IMG/VR virus record: IMGVR_UViG_2563366990_000017 | Location: 1 to 40,314 of that record | Origin: a virus | Lineage: Duplodnaviria; Heunggongvirae; Uroviricota; Caudoviricetes | Reading direction: 5' to 3' (one strand) | Length of the DNA: 40,314 nucleotides | In this document: piece by piece, positions 4,549 to 34,725 of the stretch | Numbering within the stretch: position 1 is the stretch's first letter | Layout of the letters: the number at the start of each line of letters is the position of its first letter | Notes under the pieces: model-generated | What the model saw: only the letters and a program-made list of their open reading frames with translations | Told to the model about the DNA's origin: nothing | Database searches by the model: none | Translations under genes and position numbers: made by a program

Positions 4549-4616
4549 GTCAATATTTCCTAATCCGATTTGTTGATACCGAAGCCCTGACTGTTCCCGC
4601 AGTTGGGGCTTCAACT

Positions 4617-5123: not shown

Positions 5124-5701
5124 TCGATTACAACCCAGCAAAAAAAGAAATCATCGCAGCTAAAAAGTGCCTAGAGCAGATGAAATCATCTACAAACCAT
5201 GATGATTTTGAAATGCACTGGCGAGAATGTCTTGGGCATATAGAAAAGTCTTTCAGTAAGTTGCTCTGTGCAACAAAGCCGGTTAGTGGAAAATTTAGCA
5301 GCCACTTCAACCAAAAGTTCATGCTTAGAAAAACAGACAAAACACTTGCTTACCTTCACCAAGCAAGAAATGCTGATCATCATTCCACTATGGAAATCTC
5401 AAAACTTGAACCTCCTTATACTACTCTTGGGGCATTTCCGGGAGCAAGAAGCCATTATATTAAAGAGTTAATCATTGATTCAACAGGGAAAATAGCAAAA
5501 TACGAAGGCGACCCTATGATAGTTGAGTTTCATCCAGCAACAACTATGCCTATAACCGTAAGAAACCAAGGCAAAGATTATCCACCTCCAACAGAACATC
5601 TTGGCGAAAAGCTTGTTGATATACATCCATCTGTTCTTGCCTATCTCGGTATACAATTTTATGAAAAATGGATAGATGAGTCGCGTGCAATGTTTAGATA
5701 G
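5120..5701 (+). CDS. Hypothetical protein (193 aa), AT-rich accessory gene
   Basis: ATG at 5120 overlaps the mnt stop (ATGA), so likely co-transcribed with mnt. Markedly AT-rich compared with flanking phage genes. No recognisable motif. Confidence 0.6.
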   Translation: MIDYNPAKKEIIAAKKCLEQMKSSTNHDDFEMHWRECLGHIEKSFSKLLCATKPVSGKFSSHFNQKFMLRKTDKTLAYLHQARNADHHSTMEISKLEPPYTTLGAFPGARSHYIKELIIDSTGKIAKYEGDPMIVEFHPATTMPITVRNQGKDYPPPTEHLGEKLVDIHPSVLAYLGIQFYEKWIDESRAMFR

Positions 5702-22989: not shown

Positions 22990-23065
22990 TGGTGCTGGTT
23001 AACGGACTTGAACCGCTACCCATTCGCTTACAAGGCGACTGCTCTACCATTGGAGCTAAACCAGC
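22990..23065 (-). tRNA. tRNA, anticodon UGU (Thr) by manual folding
   Basis: 76 nt on the minus strand: acceptor GCTGGTT/AACCAGC, D-stem GCTC/GAGC, anticodon loop CTTGTAA, T-arm AGCGG-TTCAAGT-CCGTT, discriminator A, CCA. One mismatch at the first anticodon-stem pair. Not verified computationally. Confidence 0.5.
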
Positions 23066-23070
23066 ATATT

Positions 23071-23145
23071 TGGCGGGACAGCATGGGCTCGAACCACGAT
23101 AAGAAGGTTAACAGCCTTCCGTAATGACCTTTATACGACTTACCC
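23071..23145 (-). tRNA. tRNA-like sequence, anticodon GUU (Asn), possibly a pseudo-tRNA
   Basis: 75 nt on the minus strand: perfect anticodon stem GAAGG/CCTTC with loop CTGTTAA, T-arm CGTGG-TTCGAGC-CCATG, 3' CCA. Acceptor stem has 2 mismatches and the D-stem is weak. Confidence 0.35.
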
Positions 23146-31367: not shown

Positions 31368-31397
31368 AACCCGACCTTAGCGTCGGGTTTTCTTTTT
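31368..31397 (+). terminator. Rho-independent terminator after the repressor gene
   Basis: aacccgac-cttagc-gtcgggtt hairpin followed by ttttctttttcc. Confidence 0.6.
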
Positions 31398-31462: not shown

Positions 31463-31491
31463 TTGACTCAATAAAGTACAAATCGTACTAT
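31463..31491 (+). promoter_or_regulatory. Candidate PL promoter with overlapping operator palindrome
   Basis: TTGACT (31463-31468), 17-bp spacer, TACTAT (31486-31491). The spacer contains the palindrome agtacaaatcgtact (31475-31489); similar GTAC half-sites recur in the cro-repressor intergenic region. Confidence 0.45.
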
Positions 31492-31531: not shown

Positions 31532-31562
31532 GGCTCTTAAAAATTTAGCCCTGAAGAAGGGC
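31532..31562 (+). promoter_or_regulatory. nutL (boxA and boxB)
   Basis: ggctcttaaaaa (boxA-like) followed by gccctgaagaagggc, matching the recalled lambda nutL boxB hairpin. Confidence 0.7.
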
Positions 31563-31734
31563 AGCATTCAAAGCAGAAAGCTTTGGGGTGTGGTGAAGGG
31601 TTCATGGATGGGAATATGTCGCACGTAAAGCGGCGAGGCCTGCGGAACTATTGCCGAATTGAAGTCGGCCGAAGCAGGTCGAAATGGGTCTCCCACCTAC
31701 CACACCACCAAAGCTAACTGACAGGAGAATCCAG

Positions 31735-32067
31735 ATGGATGCACAAGCACGCCGCCGCGAACGTCGCGCAGAGAAACAGGCTCAATGGAAAGCAGCAAAT
31801 CCCCTGTTGGTTGGGGTAAGTGCAAAACCAGTTAACCGCCCAATTCTCTCGCTGAATCGCAAACCGAAATCACGAGTAGAAAGCGCACTGAATCCGATAG
31901 ACCTTACAGTGCTGGCTGAATACCACGAACAGATTGAAAGCAACCTGCAACGTATTGAACGCAAGAATCAGCGCACATGGTACAGCAAGCCACGCAGTGA
32001 AATGGGTGTGACCTGTTCAGGCCGCCAGAAGCAACGCGGAAAATCAATTCCAGCTTATTACGATTGA
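31735..32067 (+). CDS. N: Antiterminator N
   Basis: Start set to ATG at 31735 with an AGGAGA RBS. MDAQARRRERRAEKQAQWKAANPLLVGVSAKPVNRPILSLNRKPKSRVESALNPIDLTVLAEY... is near-identical to lambda N, including the arginine-rich motif. Confidence 0.9.
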   Translation: MDAQARRRERRAEKQAQWKAANPLLVGVSAKPVNRPILSLNRKPKSRVESALNPIDLTVLAEYHEQIESNLQRIERKNQRTWYSKPRSEMGVTCSGRQKQRGKSIPAYYD

Positions 32068-32075
32068 GGTGAGAT

Positions 32076-32525
32076 ATGGAAGAACAAGCAAACAAGATTC
32101 TCGTAGAACTACTGCAAAAAGCCAGCAATGGAATAGACGCGGCTGTTTCATTCAGCCAAGCGCAGATTCCTGATGTTGTTCATCAGTTGCTGCTATGGAA
32201 TATGGTTGACAGTCTGATTAAAACATTAATAGCCATTCTAACAATCCCACTGGTTTTCTGGTTTATGAAGAAGCAGTGCCAAAGAGTTGAGACAGGTAAA
32301 ATCGGTGATGAAGGATACTCATGGGAGAGGGGAAATCCCAAATACAGGCCGACAATGGTTTGGGATAGCAAAGGAGATATTAACCTTCTTATCATGCCAT
32401 TGGTTGGAGTTTTGACTCTGTGGGGGATTTTTATTATTGGTGTAGTAACCAATATGACTTGGTTAAAAATTTGGCTGGCCCCAAAGCTTTACCTTATCGA
32501 ATATGCAGCATCATTGGTTAAGTAA
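32076..32525 (+). CDS. Membrane protein, SieB-like superinfection exclusion candidate
   Basis: 149 aa with hydrophobic helices (LIKTLIAILTIPLVFWFM; LLIMPLVGVLTLWGIFIIGVV). Directly downstream of N, where sieB lies in lambda and P22. AT-rich. Confidence 0.5.
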   Translation: MEEQANKILVELLQKASNGIDAAVSFSQAQIPDVVHQLLLWNMVDSLIKTLIAILTIPLVFWFMKKQCQRVETGKIGDEGYSWERGNPKYRPTMVWDSKGDINLLIMPLVGVLTLWGIFIIGVVTNMTWLKIWLAPKLYLIEYAASLVK

Positions 32526-32529
32526 TTTC

Positions 32530-32556
32530 AGGCCGCATAGTCGGCCTTTATTTTTG
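32530..32556 (+). terminator. Rho-independent terminator
   Basis: aggccg-catagt-cggcct hairpin followed by ttatttttgg, directly after the SieB-like stop. Confidence 0.6.
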
Positions 32557-32578
32557 GCATAAACAATATGGGGTAAAA

Positions 32579-32905
32579 ATGAAAGTTTTAATGGTTTATG
32601 AAAATGTTCCAGAGTCGACTGAAATCTATATTTTTGATGCCAATGAAGATGAAGTTAACGATTTGAAATTGTCTCACGGCAATTACACAAATGCTAATTG
32701 TGATGAAAGTATCGAAAAAGCACTATCGCGTGTTCTTGTCAGAATTAGTGATCCAGAACATTGTGATGATGATTGGCTTTCTTATTGTGGAGCGGTAAAA
32801 ACTGATGCAGGAAAATGGAGTAAAAGTAAAGTTGATAACTCAACTCCAATCATTATGAAAGATAGTGATATTGAAATGGTAATAATAACCGGAATGATTA
32901 TGTAG
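32579..32905 (+). CDS. Hypothetical acidic protein (108 aa), AT-rich moron
   Basis: ATG at 32579. Very AT-rich, D/E-rich product (DANEDEVNDL, DPEHCDDDW, KDSDIEM). Bracketed by terminators at 32530-32556 and 33012-33037. Confidence 0.6.
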   Translation: MKVLMVYENVPESTEIYIFDANEDEVNDLKLSHGNYTNANCDESIEKALSRVLVRISDPEHCDDDWLSYCGAVKTDAGKWSKSKVDNSTPIIMKDSDIEMVIITGMIM

Positions 32906-33011
32906 GCTGAGAATAAGCACTGTGTATTCATTCCAACGAGTGAATACACGGAGCAATGTCGCTCGTAACCAAACAGGAGCCGACTTGTTCTGATTATTGG
33001 AAATCTTCTTT

Positions 33012-33037
33012 GCCCTCCAGTGTGAGGGCCTTTTTAT
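33012..33037 (+). terminator. Rho-independent terminator
   Basis: gccctc-cagtgt-gagggc hairpin followed by cttttta. Lies inside the ORF-track N-terminal extension of ORF 32997-33272. Confidence 0.6.
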
Positions 33038-33101
33038 ATGCATACCAATAACGCTTCACTTGAGGCGTTTTCGTTATGCAATCAAACAGAAGGAGCATCC
33101 T

Positions 33102-33272
33102 ATGCAACAGTTCGCTATTGCAGGGGCGGCATCGGTTCGCCCTTTCAACCCGATTTTATCGGTACAGCATTCACGAAAAAACATTTTAACCGGAGCAGAC
33201 TTTAAACAACCTCGCGTTAAGAGCTTGCTGGATCGTCTTGTTGAGTTTCTGAATCAAAAGGTACAGCCATGA
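33102..33272 (+). CDS. cIII: CIII-like protein (FtsH inhibitor candidate)
   Basis: Start set to ATG at 33102 with an AAGGAG RBS 6 nt upstream. 56-aa product MQQFAIAGAASVRP...LLDRLVEFLNQ resembles lambda CIII (MQYAIAG...LIDILNQ). Confidence 0.55.
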   Translation: MQQFAIAGAASVRPFNPILSVQHSRKNILTGADFKQPRVKSLLDRLVEFLNQKVQP

Positions 33273-33433
33273 AAAAACCAACTTACGAAGAACTGGAAGA
33301 AGCCCTGAAAGAACTTAGAAGAATGGCTTTCGCCCGACGCACTAACTCTCACAACTGCGGCCCATTTCAGTACTCTGATTTATGCGAGGACATCATTGAG
33401 GTAACTCAACTGATTAAGGTCGTTAAGCAATGA
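33269..33433 (+). CDS. Small hypothetical protein (54 aa)
   Basis: Not in the ORF track. ATG overlaps the cIII stop (ATGA). Followed by another overlapping small ORF (33430-33537, 35 aa). Confidence 0.35.
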   Translation: MKKPTYEELEEALKELRRMAFARRTNSHNCGPFQYSDLCEDIIEVTQLIKVVKQ

Positions 33434-33514
33434 GCATTGCGGATACATGGTCAGACGAAGAATTCATTCGTCAGATGAACAAAATGCTCAATCAGCACAA
33501 AGAACAGGAGAAAG

Positions 33515-33826
33515 ATGATGATTCTGACTCTGAATGATAAGCGTGAAATATCGCAAATAATCGCAAGTTTTACTGATGAAGATTACGAGCGAATCAACAG
33601 TGAAGTTGATCGCCTCTGCAAACGTTGCGACCCAATAAGCGAAATGCTTCGCTTATATAAACCAGATGAACACACTAAGGACGCTATCGACTGGCTGGAA
33701 GATGATGACTGTAACTATCAGGAAAAAGCCGCTGAATGGTTCTGGGATGCAATAACCGAAAGAGTTAAGGCTGAATATGCCTTCGCAATATTCAAACGCA
33801 GACATATTTATGGAGAAGCTGCATGA
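33515..33826 (+). CDS. Hypothetical early protein (103 aa)
   Basis: Acidic protein (DEDYERINSEVDRL, DWLEDDDCNYQE). Stop overlaps the RecT start (ATGA). Confidence 0.5.
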   Translation: MMILTLNDKREISQIIASFTDEDYERINSEVDRLCKRCDPISEMLRLYKPDEHTKDAIDWLEDDDCNYQEKAAEWFWDAITERVKAEYAFAIFKRRHIYGEAA

Positions 33827-34725
33827 GCAATATCGTTGAATTCGTTAAACAGCAGGAGCAGTTATTCTGCGGAGCATTGACTGAACAGACGGTGACATGG
33901 GCTAAGGAAAGCCAGTTTGCAATTCAGTATTTCCAGAAAAACGATTACCTGGCTAAAACAGCACTGGCAAATCCAACCAGCGCACAGAACGCCATCATCA
34001 ATGTTGCGGCGATCGGCATCACCTTAAACCCGGCCAGCAAACTGGCTTATCTGGTTCCTCGCGACGGCATGGTGTGCCTTGATATCAGTTACATGGGATT
34101 ACTTCATCTTGCGCAATCGACAGGATCAATTAAGTGGGGGCAATGCAAACTGGTGTACTCAAACGACACCTATGAATCAAATGGCCTTGATTCAGCACCA
34201 ACCCACAAATACAACGCATTTGGTGAGCGAGGCTCTATTGTTGGAGGTTATTGCACGGTTAAAACAGCAGATGGTGACTACCTGACTGAAGAAATGAGTC
34301 TGGCAGAAATTAAAGCTGTGGAAGCAACGAGCAAGGCTAAGAATGGACCGTGGAAGACATTCTGGGAAGAGATGGCGCGTAAAACCATAGTTAAACGCGC
34401 CAGCAAATACTGGCCTAAAGCCCAGCGACTGGATAATGCCATTCACCTGCTTAACGAAGATGAAGGTATGCATCAGGAACCAGTTATGCCGCACAAATCA
34501 GAGGAAGATATCCGCGAAGATGAACGGAAACGCCAGCAGGAAATAACTGATAAAGCACAACTTCTTTGTGATGAAATGGCTCAGGCTGAAAACATGGATG
34601 ATTTGAAGAGATATTTTGCAGAAGCATATCGCCTGACATCTGGAATGAAATTGCAGCAGAACATACAAGCCATTTACATAGAATGCAAAGCGAAACTGGA
34701 GGTTGCCAGTGAGCAAACTATATGA
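33823..34725 (+). CDS. recT: RecT-family single-strand annealing recombinase
   Basis: 300 aa. ...KNGPWKTFWEEMARKTIVKRASKYWP... matches the RecT signature (Rac RecT has NGPWVTHWEEMAKKTAIRRLFKYLP). Confidence 0.85.
   Translation: MSNIVEFVKQQEQLFCGALTEQTVTWAKESQFAIQYFQKNDYLAKTALANPTSAQNAIINVAAIGITLNPASKLAYLVPRDGMVCLDISYMGLLHLAQSTGSIKWGQCKLVYSNDTYESNGLDSAPTHKYNAFGERGSIVGGYCTVKTADGDYLTEEMSLAEIKAVEATSKAKNGPWKTFWEEMARKTIVKRASKYWPKAQRLDNAIHLLNEDEGMHQEPVMPHKSEEDIREDERKRQQEITDKAQLLCDEMAQAENMDDLKRYFAEAYRLTSGMKLQQNIQAIYIECKAKLEVASEQTI

Follow-up and report, generated by a model that had tools for sequence, protein, structure and literature searches.

The early leftward operon of the phage studied here carries, between two hairpins with T-tracts, a short AT-rich gene for a strongly acidic protein. 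The locus raises two questions: whether this gene is a self-contained module that brought its own terminators, and what its product does. The gene, which we call ORF108, lies on the + strand at 32579-32905 of a window of 40,314 nucleotides, the whole stretch of DNA that was analysed. The window is of the P22-like/lambdoid coliphage type, and its early region matches Lederbergvirus-type phages (Gally, Louie, and Dewey). ORF108 starts with ATG, has a GGGGT ribosome-binding site 4-8 nt 5' of this codon, and encodes an acidic protein of 108 aa that belongs to PHROG 4658. The initial annotation had read the locus as an independently acquired, terminator-bracketed moron, possibly encoding a DNA-mimic anti-restriction factor.

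ORF108 and the early leftward operon

ORF108 is a real gene, a statement that we make with little reservation. Its GC content is 33.0% (GC3 23.9%) against 46.5% for the window, and its product has a pI of 4.36 and a net charge of -11.3, with 21 aspartate and glutamate residues against 10 lysine and arginine residues. When the 49 non-overlapping window ORFs of at least 70 aa were ranked, ORF108 came first both in negative charge per residue and in low GC, with two other early proteins close behind it in acidity (-0.092 and -0.090 per residue, versus -0.105 for ORF108). The very low GC and the strong acidity noticed in the initial annotation, which had asked for pI and charge to be computed, were thus borne out. 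Full-length relatives at 24-44% identity in many phages further support a real gene. Moreover, comparison with an 82%-identical homologue from a more distant lambdoid prophage (locus L011) gave 41 synonymous and 24 non-synonymous differences. These correspond to a dS of about 1.4 and a dN/dS of 0.07, so the gene has been under strong and long-lasting purifying selection in lambdoid phages.

Promoters and terminators in this work were called by consensus scans. The promoter scan placed a pL-like promoter (TTGACT-17-TACTAT) at 31463-31491 on the + strand and, in a side-by-side reading with lambda pL and nutL, a lambda-like transcript start, ATCAGCAGGACGCAC, was found after it. The pL transcript start and nutL (31532-31562, + strand) are almost base-identical to those of lambda: boxB, GCCCTGAAGAAGGGC at 31548-31562, is the same as in lambda nutL, and the boxA-like sequence is GGCTCTTA, as compared with CGCTCTTA in lambda, whose record has Nutl annotated at the matching place. 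An N antiterminator of the lambda type follows at 31684-32067 on the + strand (PF11438 N36, E 4.5e-25; phrog_271). We observed this lambda-type set of N, pL start, and nutL in a window whose other features, sar/immI among them, are P22-like; a sar antisense RNA at 4550-4616 (RF00262, 71.6 bits) marks the P22-type immI/ant region. The cI/C2-like repressor gene is closely followed by a perfect 8-bp hairpin (31368-31389) that has T-runs on both strands and looks like a candidate for a bidirectional terminator.

Directly after N, and co-directional with pL, a gene at 32076-32525 (+ strand, phrog_3054) encodes a 149-aa membrane-type protein with hydrophobic segments, for which Pfam, NCBIfam, and PADLOC returned no match. 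This neighbour had been called SieB-like, an identity that we rejected: there is no Pfam match, BLASTP against lambda SieB gave an E value of only 0.22, and the gene in the window runs with pL, unlike lambda sieB, whose annotation is on the opposite strand. On the other side of ORF108, the proposed cIII-like neighbour did hold (33102-33272, + strand; phrog_550, E 5.9e-19), and further small ORFs and RecT are found 3' of it in the operon. Early ORFs 3' of cIII (33430-33826) are acidic as well, one of 35 aa with a net charge of -7.4 and one of 103 aa (phrog_3486) with a pI of 4.65 and a net charge of -9.3.

Consensus scanning of the + strand between 31491 and 32871 found no promoter-like site, although a weak or non-sigma-70 promoter could escape such a scan, and the left T-tract lies just ~22 nt 5' of the ribosome-binding site of ORF108. 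N, acting at the lambda-type nutL, would carry RNA polymerase from pL through the left hairpin into ORF108. Judging from established lambda biology, the gene would be transcribed only with N-mediated readthrough and would be silent in a lysogen. Because the pL transcript would reach it only via N, ORF108 would be a delayed-early lytic gene. Expression by N-dependent readthrough had been anticipated for this locus, and the lambda-type N, the pL start, and the identical nutL boxB all agree with it.

Backbone hairpins, PreS, and the inserted cassette

Hairpins with T-tracts do lie on both sides of ORF108, as the initial annotation had described, and the scan picked up both of them on the + strand. 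The left one spans 32530-32556 (AGGCCGCATAGTCGGCCT and TTATTTTT at 32530-32547), and the right one, the equivalent of the lambda tL2a/PreS terminator, spans 33012-33037 (GCCCTCCAGTGTGAGGGC and CTTTTTAT at 33012-33029). A third hairpin with a T-run, which the initial annotation does not name, was found at 33050-33069 (+ strand), 30 nt 5' of the cIII start. One also precedes lambda cIII; we take the third hairpin to be, probably, the equivalent of tL2b, and it may overlap with the translational control of cIII. Across 4 kb, the terminator scan reported 8 sites versus 3.9 +/- 2.0 in shuffled sequences, a modest excess.

Comparison with other phages suggests where the two flanking hairpins belong. 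Both are present in lambda, Gally, and many E. coli prophages, about 130 nt apart and with no gene between them. The order in the lambda ral-ea10 spacer is the ral stop, a hairpin, GGCATAAATAACAGAATAAACACT, and a 121-nt PreS block. The hairpin after ral has its right arm and T-tract in common with the left hairpin of the window, and the 121-nt block closes with GCCCTCCAGTGTGAGGGC and a T-run at about lambda position 33925. The same right arm and T-tract are also found after Ral, Nmad5, or other genes in E. coli prophages, and we read the left hairpin as a junction sequence common to many different upstream genes.

The right-hand side is part of a longer conserved block. Window positions 32917-33035 align with lambda 34045-33925 with one mismatch in the first 113 nt and three in 119 nt, and the fold of 32906-33045 is much better than that of shuffled sequence (z -4.63). 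A perfect 12-bp hairpin (32922-32949, + strand), across which lambda is identical, lies just 5' of the 5' end of a PreS (LPR1) homologue at 32952-33035 on the + strand; this 5' end is approximate, as it was counted back by ~88 nt from the T-tract. LPR1, or PreS, has been described in lambda as an Hfq-dependent small RNA located between ral and ea10 with its 3' end at tL2a, about 88 nt long and processed to about 68 nt (bioRxiv 10.1101/2024.10.31.621285). The same preprint, in which LPR1 was renamed PreS, reports that its expression is confined to the lytic cycle, that it up-regulates dnaN of the host, and that some 2,500 genomes conserve it (bioRxiv 10.1101/2024.10.31.621285). Since the block in the window is homologous to LPR1 as described there, what had been taken for the right terminator of ORF108 is the 3' end of PreS, and PreS would lie within the 3' untranslated region of ORF108. 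Rfam scans of the whole window at the gathering threshold and of 32400-33300 at E <= 10 left the locus uncovered, and PreS/LPR1 has no Rfam model; the scans reported only sar and two tRNAs elsewhere. The latter form an adjacent phage-borne pair, tRNA-Thr(TGT) and tRNA-Asn(GTT), at 22990-23145 on the - strand.

On these alignments, both flanking hairpins appear to be features of the phage backbone that are older than the insertion of ORF108. The proposal that the terminators are the brackets of the gene itself did not survive this comparison: lambda and Gally, which lack the gene, have both of them, the right one is tL2a, and the 82%-identical L011 homologue has no upstream terminator at all. 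Because both flanking terminators belong to the phage backbone, ORF108 is not a self-contained module, and we regard it instead as a plausible counter-defence candidate.

The inserted cassette is about 342 bp long (32567-32908, + strand, with boundaries good to a few bases) and consists of the ribosome-binding site, ORF108, and a few further bases. Lambda, Gally, E. coli LF82, and others lack it and have the flanks directly joined. A 751-bp query over the locus gave flanks-only matches in hundreds of phage records and in 2,237 E. coli genomes, and the ORF108 cassette was present in 16 of 5,426 complete E. coli genomes at 97-99% identity. All six prophages that we opened carry it within the pL operon (6/6), and in the three that were read base by base both junctions agree with those of the window. 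The surroundings vary: Ral, Nmad5, or unrelated small genes stand 5' of the cassette, and tL2a is followed by cIII directly, by a P22 gp17-like gene, or by a coiled-coil protein. Other one- or two-gene inserts were found at the same junction in PEC301, 19AR1724, and phage Dewey (loci L024, L025, and L026); the alternative inserts include phrog_1273, phrog_10407, phrog_1636, and phrog_14587, the last of which is annotated as 'anti-restriction protein'. From the comparison of these prophage inserts, the hot-spot junction lies between the post-gene hairpin and PreS (32556-32566 on the left and 32909-32921 on the right).

The L011 homologue occupies a different setting, between ral and cIII with unrelated flanks. 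No PreS homology was found 3' of it; a non-homologous hairpin with T7 (5442-5460) lies ~115 nt after its stop codon. We observed that the L011 segment 5328-5470, with this hairpin and T7 after the homologue, could be an analogous unit of a 3'-UTR small RNA and terminator.

Taken as comparative evidence, these patterns make it very probable that ORF108 is a single-gene accessory cassette at a recombination-prone junction of the pL operon, placed between backbone RNA elements. Of the earlier description as an independently acquired moron, acquisition stands, given the empty sites in lambda, Gally, and prophages and the foreign base composition, but a promoter and terminator of its own do not. 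More generally, the ral-tL2a spacer of lambdoid phages is a point at which cassettes are exchanged between conserved RNA elements on either side, and genes inserted there become 5' neighbours of PreS and may affect PreS biogenesis.

Protein family and predicted fold

To place ORF108 among known proteins, we compared it with profile, sequence, and structure collections. From end to end (residues 1-108), it aligned with positions 2-109 of the 109-position profile of PHROG 4658 at E 2.4e-38; this family includes RB16p265, MM5_130 of Morganella phage Mm5, and gp130 of Klebsiella phage FBKp34. A tblastn search of 50,697 phage records found relatives in 100 lytic phages, with 34.5% identity for the best relative; the hosts of the lytic-phage relatives are Klebsiella, Enterobacter, Cronobacter, Citrobacter, Escherichia, Morganella, Yersinia, and Buttiauxella. 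With HMMER, a full scan of 1.84 billion cluster representatives returned 59 relatives, all of them stand-alone proteins of 33-138 aa, the shortest being fragments, and none was a fusion. A broader profile search added no annotated member. Forms of 137-139 aa in T4-like Klebsiella phages (P0018, P0019, P0028-P0030, P0032, P0034, and P0035) carry an extra N-terminus of 30 aa, which probably reflects a mis-called start codon.

Acidity is conserved over the family at 25-40% identity (median pI 4.4, net charge -11), and P11, E12, T14, H33, Y36, N38, T104, and G105 are near-invariant. Searches for a known domain gave little: Pfam, NCBIfam, and PADLOC were empty for ORF108, with weak ferredoxin-like scores far under the cut-off. 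Pfam gave no family for ORF108 at E <= 0.1, and among 40 relatives no family appeared in more than 2 of 40 at E <= 1. A sequence search of the PDB, with both the single sequence and the profile, found nothing below E 0.28.

We predicted the structure of ORF108 with AlphaFold2 from a 40-sequence alignment and obtained a very confident model (pLDDT 95.4, pTM 0.87). In this model, a beta-hairpin at the N-terminus, three helices, and a strand at the C-terminus would make up a compact alpha/beta fold. The BFVD models available for relatives superpose on it with TM scores of 0.70-0.89. No match was found to solved structures, known mimics included, in PDB copies up to April 2026. The structure prediction and fold search proposed earlier as a check for DNA-mimic folds therefore yielded a confident model (pLDDT 95) and no mimic.

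Existing catalogues list the family as hypothetical, and the elements flanking ORF108 are known lambda features. No homologue has a name, a literature search by PHROG identifier and by RefSeq and UniProt accessions found no paper that cites them, and the supplements of the accessory-gene screen of Silas et al. contain no exact string match to the ORF108 protein.

The genomic positions of relatives in lytic phages were compared as well. RB16 and Morganella phage Mm5 have the relative in their early hyperplastic region, with ndd on one side and the holin gene t on the other, and that of Mm5 follows rIIB-ndd. In phi92-like (Stephanstirmvirinae) phages, the homologue has a conserved place just 5' of a vWA-TerF-like gene and TerD (L006 3001-4067; L012 5001-6064). 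We observed that this phi92-like locus lies inside a phage-borne cluster of the tellurite-resistance type (Ter) with TerC, TelA, an RNA ligase, and a PRTase. Overall, the lytic-phage neighbourhoods are mostly runs of unknown small ORFs.

Possible functions and known counterparts

Our preferred reading, which is circumstantial and to which we give a probability of roughly 0.4, is that ORF108, expressed in the lytic phase in dependence on N, binds or inhibits a conserved host factor in counter-defence or takeover. Early in infection, the protein would bind and neutralise a factor conserved among enterobacteria, most plausibly one that serves in defence or handles nucleic acids, and it would not be a lysogen trait. 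Bearing on this reading are the conserved acidity, the exclusively stand-alone form at 70-140 aa, the early-region sites in lytic phages, and the accessory distribution. Family members in various genomes have Ral, Nmad5, Mom, and MT-A70 as neighbours, and the junction slot of ORF108 is also occupied by a PHROG annotated as 'anti-restriction protein' (phrog_14587). Against it, the lytic-phage contexts are unspecific, consisting mostly of unknown small ORFs, and acidity is common in early phage proteins (-0.090 per residue in the neighbouring 103-aa ORF and -0.116 in lambda Ea10). For the whole package of a real gene, the cassette architecture, and the function as binder or inhibitor, we consider the odds to be about even.

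The same acidity underlies the suggestion of the initial annotation that the protein is a DNA mimic with an anti-restriction role in the manner of Ocr, ArdA, or Arn, whose acidic surface would imitate the DNA backbone and titrate type I/III restriction-modification or BREX systems. The net charge of -0.105 per residue is on a par with the -0.100 of T4 Arn, acidity is conserved family-wide, and an anti-restriction-annotated PHROG shares the slot. Location also fits, in the ral neighbourhood here and, in T4-like phages, in the early hyperplastic region between ndd and t, where T4 arn adjoins t. We nevertheless find DNA mimicry very unlikely, as hhalign detected no similarity to Ocr or Arn (Ocr probability 0.15%), there is no Pfam or PDB sequence match and no fold match to a solved mimic, and the charge density is below half of the -0.24 of Ocr. 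Moreover, ORF108 co-occurs with ral instead of replacing it, and its invariant residues do not form an acidic array but are H, N, Y, and G. DNA mimics have, to our knowledge, no common fold, so the negative fold result on its own is compatible with mimicry. The near-invariant E12, H33, Y36, and N38, together with T14, T104, and G105, would be no less suited to binding a ligand or to catalysis than to an interface between proteins, which would allow for a small-molecule binder, such as an immune-signal sponge, or a small enzyme with its site at E12/T14/H33/Y36/N38/T104/G105. That the same polar residues are near-invariant at 25-40% identity across phages of Escherichia, Klebsiella, Morganella, Yersinia, Cronobacter, and Buttiauxella speaks for such a site, and known sponges are likewise small and stand-alone. 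We judge a sponge or enzyme unlikely, since PDB copies up to April 2026 gave no solved sponge or enzyme of matching fold, only one histidine is conserved, and no known catalytic motif was recognised.

Conservation of these residues across host genera could instead reflect a conserved target within the early programme of the phage itself. The protein would then modulate the host nucleoid, transcription, or an RNA factor (H-NS, RNA polymerase, or Hfq), possibly together with PreS, with which it would be co-transcribed in E. coli lambdoid phages; the early regions adjoining ndd in T4-like phages agree with such a role. PreS is missing 3' of the L011 homologue and in the lytic-phage homologues, however, and the rarity of the cassette (16 of 5,426 genomes, versus 2,237 with the flanks) argues against a core role; we hold a part in the phage's own programme to be distinctly unlikely. 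Least probable by far is a classical moron with its own promoter and terminator that alters the lysogen through superinfection exclusion or lysogenic conversion. The foreign base composition, the presence/absence polymorphism, and the hairpin with T-run on both sides first suggest it, but both hairpins exist without the gene, the ~22 nt between the left T-tract and the ribosome-binding site hold no promoter-like site, and the L011 homologue lacks an upstream terminator. Relatives are also found in strictly lytic phages, and PADLOC was empty.

Returning to the binder or inhibitor, a broader version is that ORF108 is the lambdoid member of a new-fold acidic counter-defence family, moving as a promoter-less cassette through the terminator/PreS hot spot. 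Such a family might inhibit restriction, BREX-like, or other nucleic-acid-targeting immunity, and it would span T4-like, phi92-like, and Klebsiella lytic phages as well as temperate coliphages; we put this version forward as doubtful. If the protein is a counter-defence or takeover factor, it would add a family of new structure with members in both lytic and temperate phages of enterobacteria. At the least, ORF108 is another uncharacterised accessory gene of the pL operon and a reasonable, unexceptional candidate for anti-defence screens. What makes it mildly notable is a fold that has no match among solved structures, a spread over lytic and temperate phages, and a hot-spot site just 5' of PreS.

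The closest counterparts in position are the lambda accessory genes ral and ea10, which lie in the same operon and interval as ORF108 and are N-dependent, dispensable, and mosaic. Lambda Ea10 is also small and acidic (122 aa, pI 4.28, -0.116 per residue). As both proteins are acidic and neighbouring, homology was considered, but a profile comparison of Ea10 with ORF108 found nothing; moreover, ORF108 stands 5' of PreS/tL2a, whereas lambda ea10 stands 3' of it. Membership in the Ral family (PF11058) was likewise rejected, with no Pfam match and a BLASTP E value of 44 against lambda Ral, and Ral is a separate gene adjacent to the ORF108 relative or cassette at three loci (L003, L011, and L019).

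With the morons of lambdoid phages, in the sense of Juhala and Hendrix, ORF108 has in common that it is an extra gene of deviant base composition and patchy presence. It differs from them in having no promoter or terminator of its own, in its dependence on pL and N, and in flanking terminators that appear to predate it. T4 Arn, an anti-McrBC DNA mimic, and T7 Ocr are small, acidic, early phage proteins, as is ORF108, but neither resembles it in sequence, profile, or fold, and the charge density of Ocr is much higher. The lytic-phage members of PHROG 4658, to which the lambdoid branch is 24-44% identical, have the conserved residues and the predicted fold in common with ORF108.
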